Assembly (NCBI GenBank): GCA_033764315.1
Contig: JANRJA010000222.1
Location: 1 to 64,000, forward strand
DNA: 64,000 nt
Direction of reading: 5' to 3'
Origin: Oculatellaceae cyanobacterium bins.114
GTDB taxonomy: Bacteria > Cyanobacteriota > Cyanobacteriia > Elainellales > Elainellaceae
Shown here: positions 10,452 to 42,470 of the stretch, piece by piece
How positions within the stretch are numbered: the first letter of the stretch is position 1
Layout: every line of letters starts with the position of its first letter
Made by a program: the position numbers and the translations under genes
Notes under the pieces: generated by a model
What the model was told of the DNA's origin: nothing
What the model saw: only the letters and a program-made list of their open reading frames with translations
Database searches by the model: none

Positions 10452-10754
10452 CTATCCTTGAAAATTTCTCAGCGAGTAATAGAGTGATTCATATTCAACC
10501 TGTGAAATCACATCTTTCTCATATACCTCAGATAACCACCGCTCAACAGCGATAGAAACCATTTCAATCCTGACAAATTGCTTGGCCGCTAAATAAGCCT
10601 GTGAGGAGGTGCCATAAATACAGCCATCGTCAAACACATCAAACAAAAACGGAACGGGGGGCTTGACCTGAAATGAAAAGCCTCCGTCCTCTAAATACAG
10701 ATTGATTTCCCAACCTCTAAAGGTTTTAGGCTCTAATATTGGAGTTTTCATCAC
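10452..10754 (-). CDS. Hypothetical protein (100 aa)
   Basis: Isolated ORF with globular composition and no competing long ORF. Confidence 0.65.
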   Translation of the reverse strand: MMKTPILEPKTFRGWEINLYLEDGGFSFQVKPPVPFLFDVFDDGCIYGTSSQAYLAAKQFVRIEMVSIAVERWLSEVYEKDVISQVEYESLYYSLRNFQG

Positions 10755-11639
10755 GCTTCCAGGGGCTGAATTTGGTTAGACTGACGTTCACTATATTGCG
10801 CTCCATTAATGGGTAATTCCTCAGCACTTTAACGCAGGATTTTGAGGTTCATGGGGGTTGATCACCGAGAAACTACGGAGGCAAGCTCTTAGAGATGATG
10901 GAGTAGGGCTGCCCCTTTCCTCAATGACGTACCTTTCCTCAGTAACCTGGTAGAAGTGACTTATGTAAAGGACTCAGGGGTGCAGCTCAATTTTTCAATA
11001 TCTAGTCATACTGCCTAACTGCAACTCAGAAATAGGATGTAAGATAACTCTTCAATTTTCGTTAAATCCCTTAGCACAACGGACGTAGAGCAAACATTTT
11101 TAACTTTTCAATGGAAAATAAACGCTCGCTAATCTCGCTAATTAATGACATTTACATTTATGGGTAAGCAACCCTGGAAAACAAAATACTCTGAGCAGAA
11201 ATAAATCGTTTGTGATCCTGAGATATGTCATTGTGGGACGCAACGGTTTAGATCCTGTTTTTGAGAGTTCTTAAAAATAGAGAGTTTTTTAGAAATTTTT
11301 AGAAATATTGTTGGCCCGATCGTTAGCGCAAGGTGGGTAACTTGTAAAAACAAAATTCTGAGATGAAATGAGAAGAGATGAGTAACGATGAGCATGCAGA
11401 ATTTTAAAAGTCCAAAAAAATTTAGCTGAAGCAAAAAGTTTTGTACCTGATCTAAAGATAGATTCTTGGAAATAAGTATTGATTTCTCTATTTCTTGAAA
11501 TACACTAAATTCATGATTGGTCGCTATAGTGCTGCTATTTGCATTACATGTCGGCATCACACAACGTAAGAGATCGTTTTAACCTCAAACGTATAAATTC
11601 AGTAGCCATCTTCCATCTTGTATATACTGTGCTTCACCA

Positions 11640-12254
11640 ATGACTACATCAAAAAAACGCTCATCCGTTACCGTTTCTAAAACATCAATTGATCAAGCTA
11701 CTCAAACACTACAAAGTCTTCCAGAAAAACCTAAGCAAGGGTGGTCTCTGCGAGAAGCGATTGATCAAATGAATGATGTGATTTCAATCGCGATTAGCAA
11801 AGGCTATAGCTACGAAGAATTGGTTGAGTTGTTGCGAGATCAAGGCATTGAAATTAGCGTTTCTTCCCTGAAAAACTATCTCACTCGCAGCAAGCGAGAG
11901 AATAGTGCTGCATCAACACCAAAAGCATCCGGCAAACCGAGAGGTCGTAGACCCAAATCGGCTCAAGCAGATGTACCGCCAGAGACTCAATCTAAGGCTT
12001 CGATGGATGCTGCATCTGAGATGGAGGGCGATCGCTCTGATCATGAACCATCTGCGGATGAAACAGCTCCGTCAGACACCTCATCCCCTTCTAAGTCTGC
12101 TGGGACTCCCGCTAAAAAAGGTAGACGCACTCGCTCATCCTCTGCCAAAACGATGGCTAAAACTCAAGCAGGGGCTAATCAAGCCAAAATTAGCAGCCCC
12201 TCTAATGGTCGAAAAACTCGCCGTAAAAAGGATGAATCGTCGTTAGCCTCTTAA
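11640..12254 (+). CDS. Hypothetical protein with HTH-like N-terminal domain and Ser/Lys/Arg-rich disordered tail
   Basis: SLREAI...AISKGYSYEELVELLRDQGIEISVSSLKNYL helical domain followed by a low-complexity basic tail. Confidence 0.8.
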   Translation: MTTSKKRSSVTVSKTSIDQATQTLQSLPEKPKQGWSLREAIDQMNDVISIAISKGYSYEELVELLRDQGIEISVSSLKNYLTRSKRENSAASTPKASGKPRGRRPKSAQADVPPETQSKASMDAASEMEGDRSDHEPSADETAPSDTSSPSKSAGTPAKKGRRTRSSSAKTMAKTQAGANQAKISSPSNGRKTRRKKDESSLAS

Positions 12255-12657
12255 GCACAGGTTAGTTGGATCAATGGCTTAGTGTTTTTAGCAAAGACGG
12301 ACAAGATGATGGGGATGCCATTAGTGCTTGGGTCAGACCAGGCAGAATTTGAGTATCTATCTCTCATTCGTTAACAGCTTCAACTAACCCAAGGATCTCT
12401 TATAGGGTTGTCTAACCTCAGTCATGATTGCGGTCGAAGCGACTGCGGTAGAATGGAGTGGTTAAATTAAGCTTTGCCTTCAGATCCGATGGGTTGCCTT
12501 GGCTTTTGTCCCTGGTTAAGGGGAGCAAAAAACCTCTTGATAGGCTGCACTAAAAGCGATATAGCTGTCTATTCGCGTGAAGATGCCTGCCCTGCTAAGA
12601 CTGGTGTAAGCCACTGCAATCTAGACATCCGATCTGGAGGCAGCGATCTGGAACCCT

Positions 12658-13923
12658 ATGTGGAAACCTGAACTGCTCGCCCCGGCTAAAAATCTAGACC
12701 GTTTATATGTCGCGATCGCCTATGGAGCAGATGCGGTATATTTGGGCGGACAAAAATATGGTTTACGGGCACGAGCCGATAACTTTACCGATGATGACTT
12801 AGCCCAGAGTGTGCGATTTGCGCATCAGCACAACGCCAAAATTTACGTTACCCTCAATGCTTTCTTGCATGATGATGATTTTGAGGGATTAGGAGAGTAT
12901 TGCCAGTTTCTAGAGGCGATTGGCGTTGATGCGGTGATTGTCTCCGATCTAGGAGTCATTCGCAGAGTTCAGGCTAGCTCAAACCTCACCATTCACCTCT
13001 CGACTCAAGCCTCTTGTCTCAATGCTTATGCTGCCCAAGTGTGGTCAGCGTTAGGGGTAAAGCGTTTGATTGTGGGTCGAGAGCTCAGTATTGCAGAGGC
13101 GGGGCAGATTCGACAGCACACGGGCATAGATGTGGAGATGTTTACCCACGGTGCTATGTGCATGGCATATTCAGGGCATTGCACCATCTCTAACTTCACC
13201 GCAGGGCGAGACTCTAACCGGGGTGGATGCATTCAATCGTGTCGATTGCCGTATCATTTGCCAACGGATGCAGCTATTAAACAATCGCAACCCGCAGAGT
13301 TGGTGGCATTTATGTCATCTAAAGACCTGTGGGGAATTTCTCAAATGGGTGAATTTTTCAAGCACCAGATCTGCTCATTAAAGATTGAAGGGCGGATGAA
13401 ATCATCTTTTTATGTGGCGATGACGTGCAAAATCTATCGTCAACTGATTGATGCTTATGCCAATGGCACGTTAGATGCTGCATTGATGGCTCAGGCTGCC
13501 GCAGAGCTACACTCGTTTCCGCATCGAGACTATACGGCTGCATCGCTAGAAACTCCTGCCGATCGCACCTCGGTGTTTGAGCGGTTACATGGCATGAACA
13601 CAGGCAGTCATCACTATATTGGACAGGTGTTAGAAATCACACCCGAAACAGCAATTTTGCGATTGTTTGAGCCATTAAAGGTGGGCGATCGCTTAGAGAT
13701 TGTGCCGTTTGTGGGTGAGCCAATTACTTGGACTGTGCAACACCTTGTCTCAATTCTTGGAGAGCCAATTCAAGCGATGCGGCAAGACAGTGTAGTTTGC
13801 ATTCCCAGACCCCCTGCATTAGAACGATGGAACGCGATCGCCAAATTGAATGTTGCTCGTCTTGCAGTTGATTCCCCATCTCTCAAGGCCCAGTCTGCGG
13901 CTGAGGCAGTAGGCATCGTTTAG
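12658..13923 (+). CDS. trhP: Peptidase U32-family Fe-S protein, TrhP/YegQ/YrrO-like tRNA U34 hydroxylation subunit
   Basis: PELLAPA, GADAVYLGG, HLSTQA, HGAMCMAYSGHC...NRGGCIQSCR (four Cys), SLKIEGRMKS; in an operon with cmoA/cmoB. Confidence 0.85.
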   Translation: MWKPELLAPAKNLDRLYVAIAYGADAVYLGGQKYGLRARADNFTDDDLAQSVRFAHQHNAKIYVTLNAFLHDDDFEGLGEYCQFLEAIGVDAVIVSDLGVIRRVQASSNLTIHLSTQASCLNAYAAQVWSALGVKRLIVGRELSIAEAGQIRQHTGIDVEMFTHGAMCMAYSGHCTISNFTAGRDSNRGGCIQSCRLPYHLPTDAAIKQSQPAELVAFMSSKDLWGISQMGEFFKHQICSLKIEGRMKSSFYVAMTCKIYRQLIDAYANGTLDAALMAQAAAELHSFPHRDYTAASLETPADRTSVFERLHGMNTGSHHYIGQVLEITPETAILRLFEPLKVGDRLEIVPFVGEPITWTVQHLVSILGEPIQAMRQDSVVCIPRPPALERWNAIAKLNVARLAVDSPSLKAQSAAEAVGIV

Positions 13924-13928
13924 AACCT

Positions 13929-15110
13929 ATGCAATTTAACACGTTTGCCTCATCTAGTCGCGATCTTGAGCGGTGTGCTAATGCGCCTCAGTTACAGGAG
14001 GTGTTGTTGGAACCAGCTTTATTAGCCCGTCAAGGAAAACTAGGAGAGGCTGAGGTGCAATCTCTGGCATTAGAAGCCACTCAACGAGGATTGCATCCCG
14101 TCTTGGTATGGGACATCGTTATGACAGAGCGGATGTTGTCAGGGGTGGGCGATCGCCTCCAACAGTGGGACTTAAACCGATTTTCTGCCATTCGAGTCTG
14201 TGATATTGGGGCGGCACATTGGCTCAAAACTTACGTTCCAGAGATACCGCTGCATCTAATTGTTGAGACAGGCAACCACAATCTTGAGGCGTTGCAGGGG
14301 TGGTGTGAGGTTTTTGCAGGCTCGCTAGAACGGTTAGTGTTGTCGATCGAGCTGCCTGAAAAACAGTTAATTAAATACTGCCAAACCCTACCGATCGCCT
14401 GTGAGTTGTTGGGCGTTGGGCAAATTTTGCTGTTTTACTCACCGCGATCGCTCCTCTCAACCCACATCTCTGCTCAAGACGAGAGTGATGAGATACCCTA
14501 CCTAGAAACCACGGTCGCCTTTGAAGAGACTCCTCAACGCCCCTTCCCCACGATAGAGACTGCCCACGGCACATTGATGTTTCTCGACAAAGATCAGTTC
14601 ATTCTCGATCGCTTAGAGACACTCAAATTAGCCGGATTACACACCGTCCGTTTAGATCTGCGCCATCTGGGTCACGCTGGAGATGTGGCGGTCGATGTCG
14701 ATCGCATTTGTCAGCAAATTTTGGATGATCCCTTGGCACTGCGACAACAGTGGGTTCGAGACACCCGTGCTCCGTTTTTTAATGCCAACCGCACCACATC
14801 GTTGTTTGCTCGGTTGAAATCAAAACTGTCTGACTATGCCACTCCAGAGCAACTTGCTGAAGTCGTTGCTGCCGAAAAAGGTCAATACACCGTTTTTTAC
14901 ACGACGCGATCGTTTCATGTTTCGCACGTCAAAGGCATTGTGCTAACCACCGGAGAAGAACTGCCACTGCCACCTAATTTTGAGCTACGCACCGTGAACA
15001 ACGAACCCATAGAGGCGATCGCCTCTCATCAATTAATAGTCACGGATGCGATCAAAAAAGTGGTATCTGGTTCGTTGTTGATTGGCAGGATTGAAAAGAG
15101 CCATGACTGA
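13929..15110 (+). CDS. Divergent U32-family partner subunit (YrrN-like) lacking the Cys cluster
   Basis: U32-like pattern (DIGA, ETGNHN, RLVLSIEL, LFYSPRSLLS, ETAHGT, GLHTVRLDLR); starts 5 nt after the first U32 gene. Confidence 0.7.
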   Translation: MQFNTFASSSRDLERCANAPQLQEVLLEPALLARQGKLGEAEVQSLALEATQRGLHPVLVWDIVMTERMLSGVGDRLQQWDLNRFSAIRVCDIGAAHWLKTYVPEIPLHLIVETGNHNLEALQGWCEVFAGSLERLVLSIELPEKQLIKYCQTLPIACELLGVGQILLFYSPRSLLSTHISAQDESDEIPYLETTVAFEETPQRPFPTIETAHGTLMFLDKDQFILDRLETLKLAGLHTVRLDLRHLGHAGDVAVDVDRICQQILDDPLALRQQWVRDTRAPFFNANRTTSLFARLKSKLSDYATPEQLAEVVAAEKGQYTVFYTTRSFHVSHVKGIVLTTGEELPLPPNFELRTVNNEPIEAIASHQLIVTDAIKKVVSGSLLIGRIEKSHD

Positions 15111-15876
15111 CCCACTGGATACAGAGCTTTATCGCACAGCACTCTATCTGAACCCCGACAAAGACGACTTATTTGACACCGGACCCTGGCCCAAACCCTT
15201 TGTCTTCAACGAAGAAGTGGTGCGTGTCTTTGATAATATGGTGTCTCGCTCAGTGCCGCTTTACCGAGAGGTATTGGCTTGTGCGGTACATTGGGCCCGT
15301 GACTACTATCAACCCAACACGCAAATTGTCGATATTGGGTGCTCAACGGGTACGTTTTTGGAACTGCTAGGACGGTTTCTCAAACAACCCGCTCAGTTAG
15401 TTGGCGTTGATAACTCTCAAGCCATGTTAGAAAAGGCACGTGAGAAGTTAACTGAGACTCAACAAATTCATCAGGTGACATTAATCTGCGCTAATGCAGA
15501 AGAAGTTTCATTGGCTAATAGTAGTGTGATTGTGATCAACTACACGTTGCAATTTTTACCAGTAAAGCAGCGTCAGAACCTGTTGCGATCGCTCTATCAA
15601 AGTTTAGTTCCGGGTGGCTTATTGTTTCTCAGCGAAAAGGTTAAATCACCTCATCCTCGACTGCAAGAAACTGTTACGTTGCACTATGAATCCTTTAAAA
15701 CCCGAAACGGCTATGCTCGCACTGAGATTGAACGCAAAAAAGAAGCGTTAGAGAATGTGCTGGTTCCCTTAACGGAACAGCAACAAATTCAGATGTTGCG
15801 CGACACTGGGTTTGAGTATATCGATACTCTGATCAAACTACACAATTTTGTGTCACTGGTAGCCCTCAAGTCATAG
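15103..15876 (+). CDS. cmoA: Carboxy-S-adenosyl-L-methionine synthase CmoA
   Basis: FVFNEEVVRVFDNMVSRSVPLY, DIGCSTG, VDNSQAM, NYTLQFL, LSEK, FK..NGY...ALENVL, NFVSLVALK. ATG at 15103 overlaps the upstream stop. Confidence 0.92.
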   Translation: MTDPLDTELYRTALYLNPDKDDLFDTGPWPKPFVFNEEVVRVFDNMVSRSVPLYREVLACAVHWARDYYQPNTQIVDIGCSTGTFLELLGRFLKQPAQLVGVDNSQAMLEKAREKLTETQQIHQVTLICANAEEVSLANSSVIVINYTLQFLPVKQRQNLLRSLYQSLVPGGLLFLSEKVKSPHPRLQETVTLHYESFKTRNGYARTEIERKKEALENVLVPLTEQQQIQMLRDTGFEYIDTLIKLHNFVSLVALKS

Positions 15877-15899
15877 TAACCCTCAAGTAACCGTTGCCT

Positions 15900-16883
15900 A
15901 TGTTGTCTGACGCGATCGCCTACACAGCCCCCGATTACCTCGACCAATATGGCAGTGAAATTCATCAAGATGCGATCGCAACTGTGCGGCAAGAGCGGCT
16001 TGCCAAATTAATTGAACCGTCTGTGAAGCCGTATATTGAGGCAGTGCAATCCGTTCGAGAACTGCAAAGTGAGTGGTTCGACTTTGCGGGAGATGTCGTC
16101 AAGATAGGTCGGGCTGACGAGTTATCGGTCAACCAGCAACAACAGTTTTATCAAGCTCTACAAACCTTTTGTCCCTGGAAAAAAGGGCCCTTTGAGCTAT
16201 TTGGAGTGGCGATCGATGCTGAGTGGCGATCAGACTGGAAATGGTCTCGCATTTTGCCTCAGATTCAACCGTTGGGCGATCGCAAAGTGGCCGACATTGG
16301 CTGTCACAACGGCTATTTTATGTTTCGGATGGCAGATCAAAAACCCGCCTGTGTGATTGGGTTTGAACCCGTTGCCAAACATTTTTGGAATTTTCAGCTT
16401 CTGCAAAATATTACTCAACAGAGCCAGTTGGCGTTTGAGCTATTGGGCGTAGAGCATATTCACTTCTATCCCCAATTTTTTGACACCATCTTTTGTTTAG
16501 GAATTTTGTATCACCACACTGACCCCATTGGTTTATTAAATAAACTGCGCGATGCCCTTGCCCCTAAAGGTGAGTTGATCATCGATTGTCAGGGCATTCC
16601 TGGTGACATGCCTGTAGCTCTGACGCCACGCAAACGCTATGCCCAGGCGCGTGGCATCTGGTTTTTGCCGACACAATCGTGTCTTGAACACTGGCTGACT
16701 CGGGCTGGCTTCTCAACCGTTCATTGTTTTTTTGCAGCCTCCCTCTCTGTTGAAGAGCAACGCCGCACCCCTTGGGCAAATATTGATAGCCTCCAAGACT
16801 TTCTTGATCCCCACGATCGCGCGCTCACCTGTGAAGGCTATCCTGCTCCCTGGCGTTATTACCTGATAGCCCGCAGGGATTAA
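15900..16883 (+). CDS. cmoB: tRNA U34 carboxymethyltransferase CmoB
   Basis: PWKKGPF, IDAEWRSDWKW, DIGCHNGY, LGILYH, EEQRRTPW, EGYPAPWR motifs. Confidence 0.95.
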   Translation: MLSDAIAYTAPDYLDQYGSEIHQDAIATVRQERLAKLIEPSVKPYIEAVQSVRELQSEWFDFAGDVVKIGRADELSVNQQQQFYQALQTFCPWKKGPFELFGVAIDAEWRSDWKWSRILPQIQPLGDRKVADIGCHNGYFMFRMADQKPACVIGFEPVAKHFWNFQLLQNITQQSQLAFELLGVEHIHFYPQFFDTIFCLGILYHHTDPIGLLNKLRDALAPKGELIIDCQGIPGDMPVALTPRKRYAQARGIWFLPTQSCLEHWLTRAGFSTVHCFFAASLSVEEQRRTPWANIDSLQDFLDPHDRALTCEGYPAPWRYYLIARRD

Positions 16884-17189
16884 ATTGAGTTGTTTTCCAA
16901 ATTAACCCAATGCCTTTCACGGAGAGGATTAAGCCCTTAAAAAATCTTTAACATCTGTTAAAAATATCTGTTTGCTAGAACACGCCCTTGCTACACACAT
17001 TTAATCTACAGGCAGAATTATTACAACAGTTTTTTTGCTTCATGTTTTCGTTATTACAATTTTAGTGATCAGGGTTAAATGCTTTCAGCTAAATAGTGGC
17101 TCTAGGTCAAACATAAAGATGCTTAAGAGACATTCGCCTAAAAAGTTTGAAGAGCAAAATTTTGAGCACGATTTAGATAGCACATTCAG

Positions 17190-18377
17190 GTGGAGTTAAT
17201 GGATATTGAATCTTTTTCACGGCAGTTAAACGCCATGCGCAATCGCATTTTTACATTAATGAACCGTGCCTATTCTGAGCCGTCTTTAGATCTAATTCCT
17301 TTTTCATTAAAAGAGCTTGGTGTCGCTTCTGAAGAATTGGAAGTCACTTTAGAAGCGTTGCAGGAACAAAACCAGGCATTAAGTCATGCGTTGATAGCCG
17401 CAGAACGAGAACGTCAGCAATATCAAGACTTGTTTGAATCGGCTCCAGAAGCGTATTTAGTTACGAATATGGATGCCACAATTCAGGAGGCAAACCAGTC
17501 AGCCGCAAACCTTTTGGGTGTGTCGGCTAAATTTTTGGTGGGCAAACCGTTAGCCGTATTTATGGATGAAAAAGAGCGTTCTCAATTGCGATCGCGCTTG
17601 TCACAATTGACGAATGGTTGTCCACAAACCTGGGAAATTTCGATTCATCCGCGCGATCGCAAACCTTTTGATGTTGAGTGCGTTGTAGGCATCGCTCAAC
17701 ATAAAGGAACACTGCGTTGGTTAATTCGAGATATCACGAATCGCAAACATTTAGTTTCTATTAATTACAATAATCACAATACCCATCAGCCCATTGCAGA
17801 TTACATTCAAATCCTTCAAGAAAATCGTTTTGTTCACGCTTACAATCGCCGTGAGTTAATTTCTCTAGAGCCTGAAAAGCTTTGGTTGGTAGTGCAAGGA
17901 TTAGTCAAGTTAACAACTCCTATTGACGGTAATTCAGATATTGTGACAGGACTGATTGGGCCAGGGATGGTGTTTGGGGCTTATCTGACTTCGTTGTCAC
18001 TCTATCAAGCTGCTGCTTTATCAGATGTTCAACTGGTTGCTATCTCGTTAGATGAAATTGCCAATTCTCCTCAGTTGGCTCAACTCTTTTTTGTAATGAA
18101 TGCACGTCGATTGCGACAAGCCGAAGCATTATTGGCGATCGCTGGAGAACGTCATATCAAAGATCGGTTATATCGTTTGTTAGAACTGCTGAAAAAAGAA
18201 ATGAGTGAAACTAATGCAGCGGGATCACGGCTCAATGTTCGTTTGACCCATGAAGATCTGGCCAATGCCTGCGGTAGCACTAGAGCTACGATTACTCGGT
18301 TAATGGGAGAACTGCAACAACAAAAAAAAGTAATCGTTGACGATAAGGGGCACATCATCCTAAAGGAAGGTTTGTAA
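17190..18377 (+). CDS. Coiled-coil/PAS-Crp/Fnr-type transcriptional regulator
   Basis: YQDLFESAPEAYLVT PAS domain, cNMP-fold-like LWLVVQGLVKL, HTH LTHEDLANACGSTRATITRLMG. Start is GTG 17190 or ATG 17199. Confidence 0.9.
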   Translation: MELMDIESFSRQLNAMRNRIFTLMNRAYSEPSLDLIPFSLKELGVASEELEVTLEALQEQNQALSHALIAAERERQQYQDLFESAPEAYLVTNMDATIQEANQSAANLLGVSAKFLVGKPLAVFMDEKERSQLRSRLSQLTNGCPQTWEISIHPRDRKPFDVECVVGIAQHKGTLRWLIRDITNRKHLVSINYNNHNTHQPIADYIQILQENRFVHAYNRRELISLEPEKLWLVVQGLVKLTTPIDGNSDIVTGLIGPGMVFGAYLTSLSLYQAAALSDVQLVAISLDEIANSPQLAQLFFVMNARRLRQAEALLAIAGERHIKDRLYRLLELLKKEMSETNAAGSRLNVRLTHEDLANACGSTRATITRLMGELQQQKKVIVDDKGHIILKEGL

Positions 18378-18587
18378 CTCAAACGAACAGAATTTGAGTT
18401 TCATTATTCCATTAGGTTAACTAGATAATAAAGCCGAGGTCATTGCTTGCTAATTCTTCTCTGATCAGTTTTGTAGTAATTTCAGGATTTGGGTTTTTAT
18501 ACCAGAATTCAAAATTCTTTAAATCGTTGAAATTCAATTTAGGAAGAATTTTCAAGTGTTAGCTTGCACTTTATGTACGGCCAAATT

Positions 18588-18688
18588 GGGCATTGCTGAT
18601 CGAATGTATAAATTTTGTCAGGACATTTCGCGGAAAGCCCCTGCTGACATGATCAGTGTTTATAAGTCATGCCTACATTCAGCAACTC
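18588..18688. repeat. Dispersed repeat (family D)
   Basis: ggcattgctga...ttcagcaac ends. The left part resembles about 52668-52725 (gtgttgctga..aatgt..gaatt...gg.c.tttcgc..aa.gcc). Confidence 0.45.
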
Positions 18689-18974
18689 TTTAAATTGAAT
18701 CTAGACTAGAAGATTAGATGTGGTATCTTCTAAGCAACCTAATGTAAACTAATGCTTTTCCTGACCTTTGTTTTTTTGTGTTTGAATCTTAAAAAGGATT
18801 CTTTTGATTAAATCAAATGGTTTGAGAGACTCAATCTTAAAGAAGATGTAATGTAGTGAAGGCAAAGGCGATCCTTAGAAGATTACTAGCAGCAAACCTG
18901 TGTCATCCCTGAATTTTTTCATCACCCCTTTTTATCCACTCAAACCAATTATTTAACCTGTTCTTTTAATAAAA

Positions 18975-20321
18975 ATGGCTAATCACAAAGAGAACAATTT
19001 TTTTTTATACCACTTAGACACAGTGCATCATCGCATGGAACAGTTACATCAAACTGCTAGAGAGACATCCTGGCAACAACCAGAGTTAGTAACTGCTTGC
19101 TTACATGAGCTTCAGGTAGCATTAGAAGAATTGCAAATTGCTGAAGAAGAACTGTACAAACAAAATGAGCAACTCCTGACGGCTCGTCAGTCAGCTGAAG
19201 CGGAACAACAGCGTTACCAGGATTTATTTGAGTTTGCCCCTGATGGCTATTTGGTCACTGACCTTTACAGCACAATACGGGAAGCCAATCGAGTAGCTGC
19301 CTCTTTGCTGAATATTCATAGTAAATATCTGATCGGCAAGGCTTTAGCGTCTTTTGTCCCAGAAGTAGAGCGACGTGGTTTTCGGATGATGCTGAATCAA
19401 CTCCCTAGCATTGGTCGTGTGCAAGAGTGGGAGATCAAGTTGATGGCACGAAACCAACAGTTGTTTGATGCCGCATTAACGATTGAAACGGTGCGTGATG
19501 ATCAAGGACAAGCGATCGCTCTAAGGTGGCTATTGCGAGATATTACGGCTCGCAAGCTGGCAGAAGAGCAATTGCATCAGGTGCAACTGCAAAATCTGCA
19601 ATTGATCGAGGCCGATCGGCTCAAAAATCAGTTCATTGCCATGCTCTCTCATGAGCTAAGAACTCCCATGAATGCCATTTTGGGGTTCTCACAACTGTTG
19701 CTGCGACAGTTTCATCAGGAGTATGATCCCCAGATTATTCATATGGTCGAGCGCATTTTTAGCAACGGTCAGCACCTCCTCAAGCTGATCGAAGAGATGT
19801 TGGACTTTTCTAAACTCAAGGGAGATCACCTGGAACTGTGCTGCGAATCTTTTGATCTGGTTGAGCTGATTACAACCGCTACGCATGAATTGCAAGCATT
19901 GGCAGAACAAAAAAACTTGATGTTTCAGGTCAATTTATCTGCTCAATCCTCTATCTCAGTCGTAAACGATCGCACCCGATTGCGTCAGGTGTTGATTAAT
20001 CTATTAGCCAATGCAATCAAATTCACCGAGGCGGGTGGAGTATTTGTCGAAGTCTTTGAATTACCCGAAGGACGAGTAGTGATTGTCGTGCGTGATACCG
20101 GCATTGGCATTGATCCTCAAAACCAACATTTAGTTTTTCGAGAGTTTTGGCAAGTCAATCAAACGTTGACCCGCCGACACAGTGGCACTGGTTTAGGACT
20201 CCCCATCACCCAGGCTCTGGTCAGGCTTATGAAAGGCAGCATTGCCTTAGAGAGCCAGTCAGGGGTAGGCTCCATCTTTCGAGTAGAGTTGCCGCGTGAT
20301 GTGAGTGCGGTGAAAGCATAG
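18975..20321 (+). CDS. Coiled-coil/PAS sensor histidine kinase
   Basis: PAS YQDLFEFAPDGYLVTD; H box SHELRTPMN; N box NLLANAIKFT; G boxes DTGIGI and GTGLGL. Confidence 0.95.
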   Translation: MANHKENNFFLYHLDTVHHRMEQLHQTARETSWQQPELVTACLHELQVALEELQIAEEELYKQNEQLLTARQSAEAEQQRYQDLFEFAPDGYLVTDLYSTIREANRVAASLLNIHSKYLIGKALASFVPEVERRGFRMMLNQLPSIGRVQEWEIKLMARNQQLFDAALTIETVRDDQGQAIALRWLLRDITARKLAEEQLHQVQLQNLQLIEADRLKNQFIAMLSHELRTPMNAILGFSQLLLRQFHQEYDPQIIHMVERIFSNGQHLLKLIEEMLDFSKLKGDHLELCCESFDLVELITTATHELQALAEQKNLMFQVNLSAQSSISVVNDRTRLRQVLINLLANAIKFTEAGGVFVEVFELPEGRVVIVVRDTGIGIDPQNQHLVFREFWQVNQTLTRRHSGTGLGLPITQALVRLMKGSIALESQSGVGSIFRVELPRDVSAVKA

Positions 20322-33475: not shown

Positions 33476-36429
33476 AGCTGACTACTCCGTTTATCTCGTT
33501 CAGGAATTGTAAAGCAGAAGGTTGACCCGTTTCCAGGTTGAGAGTCAACCCAAATTTGGCCATTGTGACGCTCTACAATTTTTTTGCAAATGGCTAAACC
33601 GATCCCAGTACCAGCGTATTCTGTCCGATTATGTAATCGTTGAAAAATTACAAAAATTCGTTCAGCATATTGCGGATCAATACCAATGCCATTGTCTTGA
33701 ACCGAAAATAACCATTGTTCGGCTTGACGCTGAGCCGTGATGTGAACTGTGGGGCGATCAAGATTGTGGAACTTGATGGCATTGCCAATCAAATTTTGGA
33801 AAAGCTGCGTGAGTTGGATAGGGTCTACCAAGACTTCGGGCAAAGCATCCCAGGTGATGATGGCTTGTTTTTCTTCGATCGCAATTTGGAGATTGGCGAT
33901 CGCCTGCTGCATCAGCTTGGTGCAATCAGTCACCTCAAACGCCTTGCCACGAGTGCCCACCCGTGAATAAACCAGCAAATCATCAATCAGTATCTTCATG
34001 CGATTGGCACCATCCACAGCATAGGCAATAAAGTCATTGGCATCTCCATCCAACCGATCTTTATAGCGTCGCTCTAACAGTTGCAAATAACTACTAATCA
34101 TCCGTAATGGCTCTTGCAAATCGTGAGAGGCTATATAAGCAAACTGTTGCAACTCAGAGTTCGACCGAGCCAACTCTTGACGTTGACGGATTTCTTGCTC
34201 TAGCAACTGAGATTGAGTCAGGGCAATCCCAATTTGGTCTGCCAATTGTTGTAATAGATTGGTCTCAAAGCCAGTCCATTGTCGCGCAGATTTACACTGG
34301 TGGGCAATTAACAATCCCCACAGATGTTCTTTGATGAGAATAGGCACTACCAGTTTGGCTCGCACCTGAAATTGTCGAACAAAGTCAACCAAACAGGGAG
34401 ATACCGCTTCATCAACCGCCTCGACATCAGCGACCACACGCACTCGCCCTTGCTGATACAACTGTTGATAGTTTTTTGGAAAAACCTCTTCAGAGAATTG
34501 ATGGTCTAAAACGGAGGATAGTTCGGGTAAGACCGCTTCAGCCACTCCGCTGCCTGTGCCATCTGCCCAAAGCCGATAAATCAGCACGCGATCGGCTTGC
34601 AAAATTTGTTGTACCTCAGTCACCGCTGTTTGCAAAATGTCTTCTAGTTGCAGTGATTGACGAATTTTGAGCGTGACTTCAGCAAATAGTTGCGATCGCC
34701 GATGTTGTAGTTGCAATTTCTGCTCGGCTTGAGTTCGTTCTAATTCTGCCAAGGCACGGGTAGCAAAAATTTGCAACATGGCCTCTGCCATTTTGGGTTG
34801 ATGTAGTGGCTGACAACTGAGCACAACCAACAACCCCAACACCTGACCTGTGGCGTTTAACAGCGGCATGCCAATGTATCCTTCAACATTGAGCAAGACC
34901 AGCCAGGGATCATGGGGAAATAGTTGCTGCACTCCTTTGTCATAACAACACAACCCCTGTTGTAAGACAATTTCGCAAGGAGTGTCTTTCAACTCGTACT
35001 CAAAATTGTCCATTGCCTCACCTTTGCCATACACGGCTAGGGTTCTAGCGGTTGGCGAAGGAATATTGGACACGAGTTGACTAACAAAGGCGTAATCTGC
35101 ATTTAGAATCTGGGCTAGATAGTGCACCAGCGATCGCAAAAACTCATCTCCGGTTGCCGCTGAGACTCCCTCAGCCGTGTTGCGAAGCATATTTTCTAAC
35201 TGCTTTCGCTCGGTGATATCAGTCATGCCACCCACCATCTGTATCGGTCGTCCTTGCTTGTCATGGATGATGTGAGCGCGATCAATGACATCGGCAAAAG
35301 AACCATCGGCTCGTTGATAGCGATATTCATCAGTCCAGGAGATCTGACCCGTTTGGATGGCAGCATACATGCTCGATGTGACTCGTGAGCGATCGCCCGG
35401 ATGAATATGTTCGTACCACCACGTTACATCACGACCCACCTCTCCAATAGAGTAGCCAAACAGAGTTTCGATCCCCTCGCTCCACCAAACTTGATCCGTC
35501 ACAAGATTCCAATCCCAAATGGCGTCATTGGTCGCTTTGGCAATGAGTTGAAATCGTTCTTCGCTTTGACGTAGAGCCAGTTCTGACTGCTTGCGGGCTG
35601 TAATGTCTTGAAAATAAACAGATAGTCCGGTTTGAGCTGGATAGGCATGAATCGCAAACCACCGCCCTGATGGAGGATAAAACTCCTCAAATTCAATGCT
35701 GATTTGCTCAGCCATAGCTCGGTGATATTCTCTATAAAAACTAGAATTGACTGCTTCTGGAAACACTTCCCAAAAGTTTTTGTTGAGTAACTCTGCCTTA
35801 CTACGCTGCAAGAGTGGCTCTGCTTGGGGGTTGAGATAGGTACAGCACCAGTTATGATCTAACGCAAAAAAACCATCTGTAATACTCTCTAGAATGCTAA
35901 TGCTCCAGTTGCGAGCTGCCTCAGCCTCAGCCCTAGCCTGTTGCTCTTGAGCTAAGAGTTGAATCCGCTCTTCTTCGATTCGCTGACGCTCTTGAATCTC
36001 CTGCTCTAGGCGATCGTTTTGCTGTTGGAGTTGCTGCGTCAGATGTCGCAACTGCAAATGGGTTTGAATCCGAGCCAGCACTTCTTCGTGTTGCAAGGGC
36101 TTTGTGATGTAATCTACCGCCCCTAAGCTAAACCCCTTTACTTTATCGACTGTCTCTGTCAGAGCCGTCATAAAAATAATGGGAATGGGGTTTGTTGTAG
36201 CCTCTGATTTTAAGCGATAGCAGGTCTCAAACCCATCTATACCCGGCATGAGAATATCTAACAAAATCAAATCCGGCAACGCATAGCGAGCCTTTTGCAA
36301 AGCACTTTCGCCATCTTCTGCGACTAAGATCTTAAAACCAGCGTGAGTCAAGCAATCAAATAAAACTTCTAAATTGGTGGGGATATCATCCACGATCAGA
36401 ACGGTCCCCGAATGGGTTGTCTTACTCAT
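33472..36429 (-). CDS. REC-PAS-PAS-GAF-CBCR GAF-histidine kinase
   Basis: N-terminal receiver LLDILMP; last GAF has FSEEVFP...[18 protein letters not shown] (green/red CBCR signature); Cph1-type H box [12 protein letters not shown] at 36429 overlaps the upstream TGA. Confidence 0.93.
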
Positions 36430-39400
36430 GCAGACCTCTGACACTGTTGAATAAACTCTAGAATTTGACGTTCTTTAAACCCTTTTGCCAATTGGCGCAG
36501 ATGAGCCGCAAAGGGAATCCACTGGGGATCGAGGGTTTCTAAATAATCACTGTGATCGAGAATGCCCTTGAGATCTCCCATGAGAGCCAAATCAAGCAAT
36601 ATTGTAATTTCTTCTGTTGGAGGAACAAGTAGCACCGGACTGGAGGGGGGCGTTATGTCTTGAGATGGGGAATTCCAGTTGGATGGCAATGGAGGGCTTT
36701 GCTTTACCTGTGCAGGTGACTCATATATCCATTCCAGCTTGAGGTGTTGGCTTAACTGATTCAACAGTTCTGCTTCCTGGATTGGTTTTGATAGAAAACT
36801 AGTGCAGCCAACATTGCGGCTTTGTTGTTGATCCATATCAAACACACTAGCTGAGATCGCAATAATAACGGTGTGTTGTAGGGCAGGCGACAGGCGAATT
36901 TGGCGAGTCGCCTCGAAGCCATCCATCACGGGCATCACTAAATCCATCAAAATAATATCAGGCTTCACCTGATCAGCTTTGTTTAGGGCCTCTCGTCCAT
37001 TCACCGCTTCGACCACATAAAACCCCAACGGTTGTAGCAGATGAGCCAGAATATAGCGATTTTCTTCCTTGTCATCAACCACTAAAATTGTGCGGCGATC
37101 GCCCTTATATCCAATTATAGTGGGGCGATCGAGCAGTCGATCAGACTGATGGGGCACAACCGCCACGTCTAGATCGACCCAAAAAGTGCTGCCTTGCTCT
37201 GGGGTACTCTCAACCTGAATCTGGCTTTGCATTAACTGCACCAGTTGACGGCTAATAGCAAGCCCTAATCCGGTGCCCTCGGTTTGCCTGTGTCGCTCAC
37301 CTACCTGACGAAATGGCAAAAAGATTTCTTGCAGGTGGTCGGGTGTAATGCCAATGCCCGTATCTTTGATTTGAAAGCGAATTTTGGCAGTGGGCAGAGG
37401 CTCTAAGCCTGATAGTGAGGGGTTTATAGAACCCAGCACCGCTACCGTAAATGTCACCCCGCCAGTCTCTGTAAATTTCACTGCATTGCCCAACAAATTG
37501 AGTAGCACTTGCCGTAACCGCTTTTCATCTATCTGGACTAACTTAGGCAGGGGAGTGAGTGGGGTATAGGTAAATGAAATGCCCTTTTGCTCTGCTCGGA
37601 TGCGGCACATTTGCACAATGCCTTCAAGGAACTCTAAGAAGTGCACATTGTGAGGATAGAGTTCCATTTTTTGAGCTTCGATCTTGGCCAGATCTAATAC
37701 ATCGCTGATCAAAGTCAGCAAATGCTCACCACAGTGTTGAATCACGGTTAGCCCATTTTTTTGAGCTTCAGAGAGGGCTTTATCCTTTCTAAGAATTTGG
37801 GTATACCCCAAAATGCCGTTCAACGGAGTTCGCAGTTCATGGCTCATGTTAGCTAAAAATTCGCTCTTGGCACGGTTGGCAGCATCCGCTGCTTCTTCTG
37901 CTCGCTGGCGATCGCGAATTTCTTGTTGCAAGTGTAAATTTTTGTCCTGCAACTCCAATGTTCGTTCTGCTACTTTGGCCTCTAATGTGCGATTGGCTTC
38001 TTCTAAATCGGCATAAAGGCGTGCATTTTCGATCGAGATTGCGGCCTGAGACGAGAGTAGTTGCAAGACATTTAACCGCTCTGGTGTGAATGCACCTGTC
38101 ATTAAATTATTTTCTAAATATAAGGCTCCACTAAGTTTCCCTTGATGCAAGATGGGGGTACACAAAATCGACCGGGGTTGATGTTGTGTGATGAATGGGT
38201 CAAGCATAAAGGCCCCTTCATAGGAGGCGTTGTTGAGCACAATCGGTTCATGGGTGCGGATGACGTAATTTACAATCGAGGTTGGGTAGGGGCATGGTTG
38301 CGACTGAGGGGAGCGTTCTTCTGGAGTAATTGCCTTGGAGGGTTTAATCTTGACCCCCTGATCACTAATTGCTCCCACCGCAGCAACCTCCAATTCACCT
38401 GCTTTGTCGAGCAATAAAAATCCCTTTTCTGCACCTGCATTTTCAAGCACAATTTGCATAAATTTAGTTAACAGTTTCTCTAACACAATTTCGCTAGAGA
38501 GCACCTGTGATGCCTTGATGACAGTAGCGAGATCGAGGGTTTCAGATTGGTTTTTACGAGTTGGAATCGATGTATTTTGAGGAGAATGGGAAACCTCTTG
38601 TGATTGTAATTGCCCTAACACTTGAGGATAGCGGGTTTCTAAATCGTAGACTTTAGCCGTTGCCCCCCAGCGAATGTAACCGTAATAGGCTTCACTTAAA
38701 TATTCTTTGGCAAGTTTGTCTTGATGCGACGCAAAATAGAAGGTTGCTGCCCGTTCATTGGCTAGAGCCTCTTCTTGAATATACCCCGTGTCTTTAGCTG
38801 TAGCGATCGCCCGATCATACAACTCCATTGCCTCTACCGAATTTCCTAAAACTGACCCCTTTTCAGCCTCAACCAGAAGGTACTTATGCAAAAAGTTCAT
38901 CGGTGCATGCTCTGCCCAATACTGCATCTTGACTTGATTGCGATTAACCTGATCGAGAATTTTGGTTTGCTCTGTTGCAGAGCGAGAAGAATAAACAGCC
39001 AGTTGGGTCAAAGAATCGTAAAAATAAAAAATAGGGACAACTAAAAAAGCTTTGACTCCATCTAGATACTGCTCAGCTTGCGCTGCATTTTCTAACGCCT
39101 GTTGATAGTCCCCAAACAAATAACAGAGAATTAATTTATTGAAGTAAAAGTAGTGAAGCCCAGTGCGGTCATTGGCTTGCTGAAGCAGGGACAAGGAGTA
39201 CTTTTCATTGAACGCATTGCCCAATAAGCAACACACATCCTCAGAAGATGCCAATAGATTGAGTACAGCCTGTTGAAAGATTTGATTCCACATCAAGGCA
39301 TTTTCTTGCTTGAGCTGAGCCAATGTATCGCTCACGGTTTGCATGTCTGGCTCAAGCCGAGTCAACTCTTGTCCGATTAAGTAGGAGTGTTGACACTTTT

Positions 39401-42400: not shown

Positions 42401-42470
42401 AAGCGCGATAAAGGACGGTGCTTGCTCCCTCATCAATCATCTCTAACAGGGTATAGCCAGCAATATGCAT
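36426..42470 (-). CDS. Multidomain Ser/Thr kinase-AAA ATPase-GAF-histidine kinase-REC (HstK-like)
   Basis: [20 protein letters not shown], Walker [41 protein letters not shown], receiver LMDLVMP. Confidence 0.96.

Follow-up and report, generated by a model that had tools for sequence, protein, structure and literature searches.

The uridine at position 34 (U34) of family-box tRNAs can be hydroxylated to 5-hydroxyuridine (ho5U) and then alkylated, and more than one bacterial system for doing so has been described. In Bacillus subtilis, the trmR-trhP2-trhP1 operon (yrrM-yrrN-yrrO) joins tandem U32 genes to an enzyme that alkylates ho5U, yielding 5-methoxyuridine (mo5U34) by a route that requires prephenate but no O2 (Sakai et al., 2019; PMC6599085). 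Escherichia coli makes 5-carboxymethoxyuridine (cmo5U34) with TrhP (YegQ), CmoA and CmoB. Here, we analyzed a 64,000-nucleotide stretch of DNA (hereafter the window; positions 1 to 64,000 of contig JANRJA010000222.1 in the assembly of Oculatellaceae cyanobacterium bins.114, GCA_033764315.1) that carries, on the plus strand at 12658-16883, a block of four co-oriented genes encoding two U32 proteins (which we call U32A and U32B), CmoA and CmoB. Judging from their sequences and context, these genes most probably form an operon for O2-independent, prephenate-dependent conversion of U34 to ho5U and on to cmo5U, in which the hydroxylase would be a TrhP1/TrhP2-type heterodimer with an Fe-S motif in one subunit.

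The resemblance to the B. subtilis system lies in the tandem U32 genes, the ho5U-alkylating branch encoded in the same operon, the predicted use of prephenate rather than O2, and perhaps the domain make-up of the subunits, which in B. subtilis are one with the U32 domain plus a C-terminal motif and one with the U32 domain only; here, the C-terminal PF16325 match of U32A falls below its cut-off and U32B is modeled with a C-terminal beta domain. The two operons differ in the alkylating branch, which is CmoA and CmoB (carboxymethyl) here and TrmR (methyl) in B. subtilis, in gene order, which is trhP1 then trhP2 here, and in the company of TrhO, which Bacillus has and which was not found here. With ~390 aa and an extra beta domain, U32B also differs from its B. 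subtilis counterpart, a comparison made on length and domains. YrrN of B. subtilis has ~309 residues. The chemistry and the product, cmo5U34, are predicted to be those of the E. coli system; there, however, a single TrhP is unlinked to cmoAB and TrhO provides a second route, whereas here a predicted heterodimer is encoded in the operon itself and no TrhO was found.

Two other U32 systems bear comparison. UbiU-UbiV, an O2-independent ubiquinone hydroxylase, likewise consists of U32 paralogues encoded side by side that form a heterodimer and use prephenate (PMC11574389). In that enzyme, both subunits bind a cluster, whereas the ligands are present only in U32A here, and the gene context here is tRNA modification and not quinone synthesis. 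UbiU and UbiV reportedly have four cysteines each. RlhA (YdcP), which makes 5-hydroxycytidine 2501 of 23S rRNA, shares with U32A the U32 domain, the Cys motif and a similar BLAST score, but has a long C-terminal region that U32A lacks and a different gene context. The usual cyanobacterial route to 5-oxyuridine derivatives (xo5U) at the same U34 is TrhO with TrmR, or more rarely a trhO-cmoA-cmoB cluster. TrhO needs O2, is unrelated to U32 proteins and occurs in no carrier of the present module that we checked, and the CmoBs linked to TrhO fall in the clade of E. coli CmoB, not in that of the module.

Parts of this gene set have been tabulated before. Orthologues of trhP1 and trhP2 always co-occur, in Firmicutes, some Tenericutes and Cyanobacteria, and a row of Supplementary Data 2 in the same study, 'Trichodesmium_erythraeum 0 0 1 1 1 1 1 0', gives TrhO 0, TrhP 0, TrhP1 1, TrhP2 1, CmoA 1 and CmoB 1; in the part of that table covered here, all other carriers of TrhP1/TrhP2 go with TrmR (Sakai et al., 2019; PMC6599085). 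CmoB orthologues have been noted in some Cyanobacteria (Kim et al., 2015), and CmoA and CmoB are described as mainly proteobacterial (Diwan and Agashe, 2018). In Synechocystis RNA, mo5U was detected in a 2026 study whose text does not contain the term 'cmo5U' (PMC12860351).

Results

The first gene of the block, U32A (12658..13923, plus strand, 421 aa), encodes a TrhP1-like U32 'oxidase' subunit. It matches Peptidase_U32 (PF01136) with an E-value of 4.9e-68 and 229 bits, and its C-terminal part gives a weak match to U32_C (PF16325; 21.9-25.3 bits, E 1.7e-5), below the 28.2 cut-off. Residues C168, C175, C191 and C195 form an exact CX6CX15CX3C motif. In an alignment with the four U32 paralogues of E. 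coli, taken from the annotated record of K-12, they fall in the columns of C170/177/193/197 in TrhP and C169/176/192/196 in RlhA, and all four cysteines of U32A are invariant in 30/30 orthologues. This motif is essential in U32 'oxidases', where it supplies the ligand set of a [4Fe-4S] cluster (review; PMC11574389). In BLASTP comparisons, U32A scored 192 bits with TrhP over its full length (32% identity), 186 with RlhA, 194 with the RlhA1-like half of a protein from its own genome, 122 with UbiU and 35 with UbiV. The alignment with RlhA is limited to its first 349 residues (5-349), and U32A has a U32_C-like tail instead. The equivalog cut-offs for UbiU and UbiV (440 and 275 bits) were not reached by U32A (152 and 30.1 bits) or, for UbiU, by U32B (24.2 bits).

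The third and fourth genes have strong family assignments. CmoA, the carboxy-S-adenosyl-L-methionine (Cx-SAM) synthase (15103..15876, plus strand), scores 207.4 bits with TIGR00740, above the 193.3 cut-off, and 151.6 bits with the narrower NF011995, below its cut-off of 285; across 237 aligned columns, its identity to E. coli CmoA is 36%. CmoB, the tRNA U34 carboxymethyltransferase (15900..16883, plus strand), scores 360.2 bits with NF011650 (cut-off 209) and 358.1 bits with TIGR00452 (cut-off 275) and is 37% identical to E. coli CmoB, whose K91, E104, Y200, H201 and R315 are kept as K95, E108, Y204, H205 and R319. The same five residues plus K110 are kept in 25/25 CmoBs of the module type. 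In E. coli CmoB, K91, Y200 and R315 bind the carboxymethyl group of Cx-SAM, and K91 is required for carboxymethyl transfer; the substrates of CmoA are prephenate and S-adenosylmethionine (SAM) (Kim et al., 2015). The source genome also encodes an AroH-type chorismate mutase (CM_1, 160 bits).

An earlier examination of this DNA, made from its letters without database searches (hereafter the sequence-only reading), had described the block as a self-contained O2-independent unit of a two-subunit U32 hydroxylase, one four-Cys protein and one divergent partner, with CmoA and CmoB. The family scores, the intact Fe-S motif aligned with that of E. coli TrhP, and the CmoB residues all agree with this description. 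The same reading had pointed to trhO and to the family-box tRNAs as features that would bear on the function of the operon. Aragorn located all six classical family-box tRNAs with U34 in the source genome (UAG, UAC, UGA, UGG, UGU and UGC) and found neither a Val-CAC nor an Ala-CGC tRNA. TrhO was not found in this genome, which is 90.7% complete, so its absence is to be read as 'not found' and not as proven. The lack of a detectable TrhO would make the U32 pair the only route to ho5U in the genome. A separate feature of the genome is a dense tRNA array on the minus strand of another contig (C69:26989-28835), on which aragorn numbers at least 21 tRNAs. The array includes Val-UAC, Gly-UCC, Thr-UGU, Pro-UGG, Leu-UAG and Ser-UGA, second copies of predicted cmo5U substrates.

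A hydroxylase of this kind could also feed a product that is not, or not only, cmo5U. The candidates are mo5U, made by a TrmR-family enzyme or by a SAM-dependent side activity of CmoB, and 5-methoxycarbonylmethoxyuridine (mcmo5U), to which cmo5U could be further esterified. The source genome has two Methyltransf_3 (TrmR-family) genes of ~260 bits that could turn some ho5U into mo5U, although this family covers catechol O-methyltransferases broadly and has no specificity for tRNA. Trichodesmium is scored TrmR = 1 beside CmoA/B = 1 in the table of Sakai et al. (2019; PMC6599085), and the xo5U form detected in Synechocystis RNA is mo5U (PMC12860351); at the present locus, however, CmoA is not only there but translationally coupled to the hydroxylase genes. 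E. coli CmoB does have a minor SAM-dependent activity that gives mo5U (Kim et al., 2015), but the window CmoB retains the counterpart of K91, the residue needed for carboxymethyl transfer, as well as those of Y200 and R315. The mcmo5U variant is disfavored by the results for CmoM, of which no orthologue was found in the source genome: the best tblastn match is 36% identical over 115 of 261 residues and corresponds to a generic methyltransferase core. The missing CmoM weakly favors cmo5U over mcmo5U as the predicted product. We consider it unlikely that the pathway ends anywhere other than at cmo5U.

The second gene, U32B (13929..15110, plus strand, 393 aa), encodes a TrhP2-like partner subunit in which the canonical Fe-S cysteines are absent. 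It matches PF01136 (E 3.3e-15, 56.5 bits), shows no PF16325 even at an E-value of 10, and is 20% identical to U32A over 175 residues, in keeping with the divergent partner of the sequence-only reading. At the four Cys columns it has Leu167, Ser174 and two gaps, and thus no CX6CX15CX3C. Its family comprises 522 representatives (clustered at 50%, E <= 1e-3), and most of the 150 listed have 370-410 aa. Across 50/50 members, down to 26% identity, seven residues are invariant: D62, R89, G94, N118, E159, G164 and R173. In an AlphaFold2 model, U32B consists of an alpha/beta barrel and, C-terminal to it, a beta-rich domain (predicted local distance difference test score (pLDDT) 86.2, predicted template modeling score (pTM) 0.70). 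A Foldseek search of the PDB with this model returned generic TIM-barrel glycosidases, with the sole U32 structure, 5D88, at rank 29, and sequence and Foldseek searches found no structure of a TrhP1/TrhP2-type enzyme in the copy of the PDB that was searched. Five other cysteines of the cyanobacterial proteins were considered as an alternative metal site and rejected: C126, C151, C158 and C261 are present in 120/120 cyanobacterial homologues and C16 in 117/120, but in the wider family just 20-29/50 members have Cys at these positions, and most of the others have Val, Ile or Leu.

Structure prediction placed the two U32 proteins together. The complex prediction, run with our own alignments of 30 and 20 rows, gave an interface score (ipSAE) of 0.89 in each of three runs, while the best of three controls gave 0.00. 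The mark used for ipSAE was reached by 58/80 solved complexes and 2/110 mismatched pairs, counts that are only a rough guide for predictions made with our own alignments. The models contain 250-256 contacts, of which the runs share at least 87%, and the pLDDT of the partner is at least 87. PDB sequence searches with U32A and U32B found no similar complex and no match, and it is therefore unlikely that the prediction merely reproduces a known structure. In the predicted interface, the Cys-motif loop of U32A (169-205, including C175 and C195) faces residues 92-98, 114-121 and 166-181 of U32B, stretches that hold the conserved D92, G94, N118, Y170, S171 and R173. The invariant D62, R89 and E159 are not among the listed interface residues. 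The model supports binding of U32A to U32B without demonstrating it.

A simpler arrangement would have U32A alone as the hydroxylase, with U32B a degenerate pseudo-enzyme that is dispensable, or stabilizes or regulates its partner, and forms no half of the active site. U32B does lack all four cluster ligands, and its remaining cysteines, which about half of the wider family replaces by Val, Ile or Leu, are not read as ligands either; the seven residues that it keeps in 50/50 members, five of them polar, argue against degeneration, as does the predicted interface, in which conserved residues of U32B meet the Cys loop of U32A. In E. coli, one gene product, TrhP, is enough, but B. subtilis needs both trhP1 and trhP2, single and double mutants being alike (Sakai et al., 2019; PMC6599085). 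U32B is, moreover, found with CmoB in all but one of the carriers checked for it. On these grounds, we think it improbable that U32A acts by itself, and we favor a hydroxylase made of both subunits.

To place U32A among U32 subfamilies, we built a maximum-likelihood tree of 35 rows comprising E. coli TrhP, RlhA, UbiU and UbiV, five TrhP-like proteins from another phylum, three fused RlhA-type proteins, 11 U32A and 9 U32B. U32A (100/100), U32B (100/99), TrhP (99/99) and RlhA2 (100/100) each formed a well-supported clade, and the branches between clades were unresolved. In this tree, U32A thus lies inside none of TrhP, RlhA or UbiU/UbiV, and the tree alone gives it no name. An indirect link to named proteins comes from Arthrospira platensis. 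In its whole genome, strain PCC 7345 has only two U32 domains; they are orthologous to U32A and U32B, and CmoA and CmoB come next. In Supplementary Data 1 of Sakai et al. (2019; PMC6599085), D4ZWM0 and D4ZWL9 of A. platensis NIES-39 are listed as TrhP1 and TrhP2; the U32 pair of Trichodesmium erythraeum is labeled likewise, and fused cyanobacterial proteins are labeled RlhA1/RlhA2. The source genome has a separate protein of this fused type (876 aa, two U32 halves; contig C122:26468-29098, minus strand). Its linker contains a proline-rich stretch of ~20 residues, repeated three-fold.

We then asked how the genes are distributed among 401 genomes sampled across the phylum, 178 of them in the class of the window, counting as true CmoB any match with E < 1e-90 (the next best match being 6e-15) and as U32B any with E <= 1e-20. 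True CmoB occurs in 20/401 genomes. Five of these (G000, G172, G274, G312 and G352) have a CmoB of the window type, 65-72% identical to that of the window; for the other 15 the figure is 38-45%. These five genomes, and none of the other 396, also carry U32B. The co-occurrence holds without linkage, as the genes lie 560 kb apart in G274 and on another contig in G172. Likewise, five of five genomes that have U32B alone within 8 kb carry CmoB elsewhere, as do 4/5 non-cyanobacterial carriers, the exception being a Planctomycetota metagenome-assembled genome (MAG).

TrhO shows the opposite distribution. Its N-terminal domain is present in 175/401 genomes and in 159/178 of the class, and the 19 that lack it include all five carriers of U32B. 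It is also absent from 5/5 further carriers (Phormidium sp. R1S1, Capilliphycus salinus, an Anaerolineae chromosome, Lyngbya sp. PCC 8106 and A. platensis). Because related genomes do not count as independent samples, the figures amount to a pattern rather than a test statistic; it is the pattern to be expected if the U32 pair had displaced TrhO non-orthologously. Elsewhere in the phylum, TrhO and CmoB do occur together, as in genus g21 (G074, G128 and G200). In G200 (locus L045, G200:C1:3125261-3142205), trhO and cmoA are neighbors with the same orientation and a cmoB of the E. coli type runs divergently from them, an arrangement that matches the reported proximity of yceA (trhO) to cmoA in cyanobacteria (Sakai et al., 2019; PMC6599085).

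Scanning 185,579 species genomes with a 20-sequence U32B alignment turned up 158 relatives, the best 80 of which were kept for synteny analysis. By record title, these 80 comprise 63 cyanobacteria, 14 members of other phyla and three unnamed. The cyanobacterial carriers include Coleofasciculus, Microseira, Floridaenema, Phormidium, Okeania, Trichodesmium, Dapis, Lyngbya, Limnoraphis, Capilliphycus, Limnospira/Arthrospira, Leptolyngbya, Vacuolonema and others; those from other phyla are Anaerolineae/Chloroflexota, Myxococcales, Bdellovibrionota, Planctomycetota and 'Deltaproteobacteria'/Pseudomonadota, all of them MAGs and one a closed chromosome. In 59/80 loci, U32B has a U32A-type gene within 8 kb, and all four genes lie within 8 kb in 24/80, in the order and strand of the window in 17/80, including one Anaerolineae, one Chloroflexota and one Myxococcales record. 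These counts are lower bounds, since many loci end at contig ends. In the 53 loci with a full U32A open reading frame (ORF), U32A and U32B overlap by 1-13 nt in 15 and are separated by 0-60 nt in 22, by 61-300 nt in 11 and by more in four, with the opposite order in one. A look-up in the ESM Atlas gave leads only, to similar clusters in Bdellovibrionota, Myxococcota and Margulisiibacteriota.

In 28/80 loci, and also in L050 and L051, a conserved gene of ~240 aa stands between U32B and CmoA. For four examples, all on the plus strand (L094:9169-9888, L063:9184-9894, L116:9366-10022 and L122:7573-8286), the best NCBIfam model is TrmN, the tRNA1(Val) adenine-37 N6-methyltransferase (m6A37), with 230-282 bits over the full model against a cut-off of 350 and ~60 bits for the next model. 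The 24 further loci are within L057-L136, and the 28 include Chloroflexota and Myxococcales clusters. TrmN (YfiC) of E. coli acts on tRNA-Val(UAC), and the title of the cited paper gives its substrate as tRNA1Val(cmo5UAC) (PMC4132733). The presence in the cluster of this TrmN-like protein, a putative second enzyme for the anticodon loop of a cmo5U tRNA, is independent support for the reading as a tRNA-modification system. The five-gene form trhP1-trhP2-trmN-cmoA-cmoB is the commoner one, found in many filamentous cyanobacteria and a few other phyla. The window has no trmN gene, U32B overlapping CmoA directly, and therefore holds a reduced four-gene form of the module. Unrelated genes also occur between the hydroxylase genes and cmoA: a Uma2-type endonuclease-like gene in the Lyngbya group (L079:9921-10505), an orange carotenoid protein gene in Microseira (L062:12215-13174) and a putative cyclase gene in Arthrospira (L115:9900-10610). 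These insertions indicate that the cluster tolerates splitting.

In a quick tree, the module-linked CmoBs of all phyla form one long-branched clade (Shimodaira-Hasegawa-like approximate likelihood ratio test (SH-aLRT) 100) that includes neither E. coli CmoB nor the remaining CmoBs of the phylum, so the module appears to travel as a unit. In five loci from Anaerolineae, Chloroflexota and Myxococcales (L116, L118, L120, L122 and L126), U32A is 62-71% identical to that of the window (57-73% for cyanobacterial loci) and CmoA 61-72%. This near-cyanobacterial similarity points to transfer of the module between phyla; mis-binning of MAGs is possible, and L118 is a closed chromosome. The sequence-only reading had taken the block to be no recent arrival, which fits the density of cyanobacterial repeat sites described below, but at some point the module has clearly passed from one phylum to another.

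That the U32 pair instead hydroxylates a target other than U34, such as an rRNA base (like RlhA) or a quinone (like UbiU/UbiV, which is also a U32 heterodimer; PMC11574389), and stands next to cmoAB by coincidence is highly improbable: the BLASTP scores of U32A with RlhA (186 bits), the RlhA1-like half from the same genome (194) and TrhP (192) are similar and the tree leaves the relations of the U32 clades unresolved, but U32B keeps company with window-type CmoB in 5/5 genomes and appears in none of the other 396, CmoB is present in 5/5 and 4/5 of the carriers with unlinked genes, every carrier checked is without TrhO, so that CmoB would otherwise have no ho5U, a TrmN-like tRNA gene sits inside 28/80 clusters, the genome has a separate fused RlhA1/RlhA2-type protein, and the scores with the UbiU and UbiV models, 152 and 30 bits, fall below the respective cut-offs of 440 and 275.

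The four genes are closely spaced. With ATG starts, U32A and U32B are separated by 5 nt (13924-13928), U32B and CmoA overlap by 8 nt (15103-15110), and CmoA and CmoB are separated by 23 nt (15877-15899). The ORF list opens the third and fourth genes at upstream TTG codons (15082-15876 and 15894-16883), with the ATG codons at 15103 and 15900. The sequence-only reading had given the four co-oriented genes and all three spacings correctly to the base. Upstream lies an intergenic region of 403 nt (12255..12657, plus strand), presumably the operon promoter and leader, in which no ORF of at least 80 aa was found. A promoter and terminator scan of 12200-17300 gave counts not above those of shuffled sequences, with no promoter-like site in 12255..12657, and an Rfam scan of 11000-19000 at E-values up to 1 gave no match.

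The window has 97 sites of the highly iterated palindrome HIP1 (GCGATCGC), whereas shuffled sequences give an expectation of 0.73. This density, together with closest homologues that are all from named cyanobacteria, identifies the organism as a cyanobacterium. Ten of the sites lie inside 12658-16883, or 2.4 per kb compared with 1.5 per kb in the rest of the window, so that HIP1 sites do run through the block, as the sequence-only reading had noted.

The surroundings of the operon are not conserved with it. Just upstream, 10500-12300 is AT-rich (GC 0.38-0.39 versus 0.46 window-wide) and includes an ORF of 204 aa (11640-12254), rich in Ser, Lys and Pro, that matches no Pfam or NCBIfam family and has no counterpart beside related clusters. 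Among 80 + 19 loci, this ORF had 0 matches and the downstream gene for a PAS-Crp regulator (17190-18377) had two weak ones. The segments 17190-20321 and 25156-47750 are rich in signaling genes, including the PAS-Crp (PtrA-like) regulator and several PAS/GAF hybrid histidine kinases, and a 2014-aa protein encoded on the minus strand at 36426-42470 combines Ser/Thr kinase, AAA, GAF, histidine kinase and receiver domains. No link between these signaling genes and the operon was seen.

Discussion

The pathway that we propose would run in three steps, all at position 34 of tRNAs Leu-UAG, Val-UAC, Ser-UGA, Pro-UGG, Thr-UGU and Ala-UGC. First, U32A, carrying a [4Fe-4S] cluster and packed barrel to barrel against the cysteine-less U32B, would hydroxylate U34 to ho5U with prephenate as co-substrate, a step suggested by homology and gene context. 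CmoA would then convert prephenate and SAM to Cx-SAM, and CmoB would move the carboxymethyl group onto ho5U to give cmo5U; both of these predicted steps draw on strong family assignments, and for CmoB also on intact Cx-SAM-binding residues. Prephenate would be supplied by the AroH-type chorismate mutase of the genome. The function proposed in the sequence-only reading gains further support from the co-occurrence of U32B and CmoB, the lack of a detectable TrhO, the chorismate mutase, the six tRNAs and the heterodimer model.

Several observations weigh against this pathway. U32A finds its best curated model in TrhP (NF011996), but its 259.7 bits fall short of the cut-off of 534. It lies outside the TrhP clade, and its grouping with TrhP is weak (74/80). 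The sequence-only reading had named clustering of the U32 proteins with RlhA or UbiU/UbiV as evidence that would speak against it; U32A forms a clade of its own and misses the UbiU/UbiV cut-offs, but a constraint joining U32A to RlhA1 is not rejected (approximately unbiased test, p-AU 0.21). Orthology to the only tested TrhP1/TrhP2 pair, that of B. subtilis, is indirect and goes through the labels given by Sakai et al. to the Arthrospira and Trichodesmium proteins. U32B has no Fe-S ligands. The two TrmR-family genes could divert ho5U to mo5U, and the TrhO result carries the limit of genome completeness given above. The same limit applies to TrmN, of which no orthologue was found in the source genome (best NF047853 score 35.9 bits, generic tblastn matches) and which is thus not proven absent. 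Finally, an O2-labile Fe-S enzyme would have to work in an O2-evolving cell.

A broader set of ideas, which we advance tentatively and with slightly more doubt than belief, is that the U32B family provides the cluster-free half of a composite active site, that the cassette trhP1-trhP2-(trmN)-cmoA-cmoB moves between Cyanobacteriota, Chloroflexota, Myxococcota and Bdellovibrionota, and that it displaced the ancestral, O2-dependent TrhO route (mo5U) in mat-forming filamentous cyanobacteria. If so, the invariant polar residues of U32B would point toward the [4Fe-4S] loop of U32A and serve to bind either prephenate or the anticodon loop. As part of the same proposal, the cassette would be self-sufficient in remodeling the anticodon loop, and would switch both the wobble chemistry, from mo5U to cmo5U, and its dependence on O2 within one phylum.

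How much of this is new can be stated in part. The parts covered of the literature on cmo5U/mo5U and TrhP-type hydroxylases contain no cmo5U measurement in a cyanobacterium and no report of the operon as such, in line with the sequence-only reading, which knew of no description of cmo5U in this phylum. The gene combination itself, however, was tabulated by Sakai et al. (2019), and CmoB was noted by Kim et al. (2015). What goes beyond the literature seen is the operon and its five-gene module, the strict complementarity with TrhO in cyanobacteria, the cysteine-less partner with its predicted composite interface, and the spread across phyla. The sequence-only reading had also allowed that the operon might already be characterized and widespread; it is widespread, with the pair in 158 species genomes that belong mostly to filamentous cyanobacteria and in part to Chloroflexota, Myxococcota and Bdellovibrionota, but it is not characterized. 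The operon is a reasonable experimental target, and would be no surprise to a specialist.

For the protein family, a pair with the cluster motif in one subunit only could reveal the role of the second subunit in TrhP1/TrhP2- and UbiU/UbiV-type hydroxylases, and hundreds of proteins now called just 'U32 family peptidase' could get new names. For the organisms, an ecological reason is plausible. Coleofasciculus, Lyngbya, Phormidium and Microseira, to which many of the named carriers belong, are mat-forming or benthic genera, and such mats are said to turn anoxic at night. If confirmed, the operon would be the first cyanobacterial case of cmo5U, and would mean that oxygenic phototrophs can rely solely on O2-independent, prephenate-dependent hydroxylation, with the decoding of family-box codons tied to flux through the shikimate pathway and not to O2.

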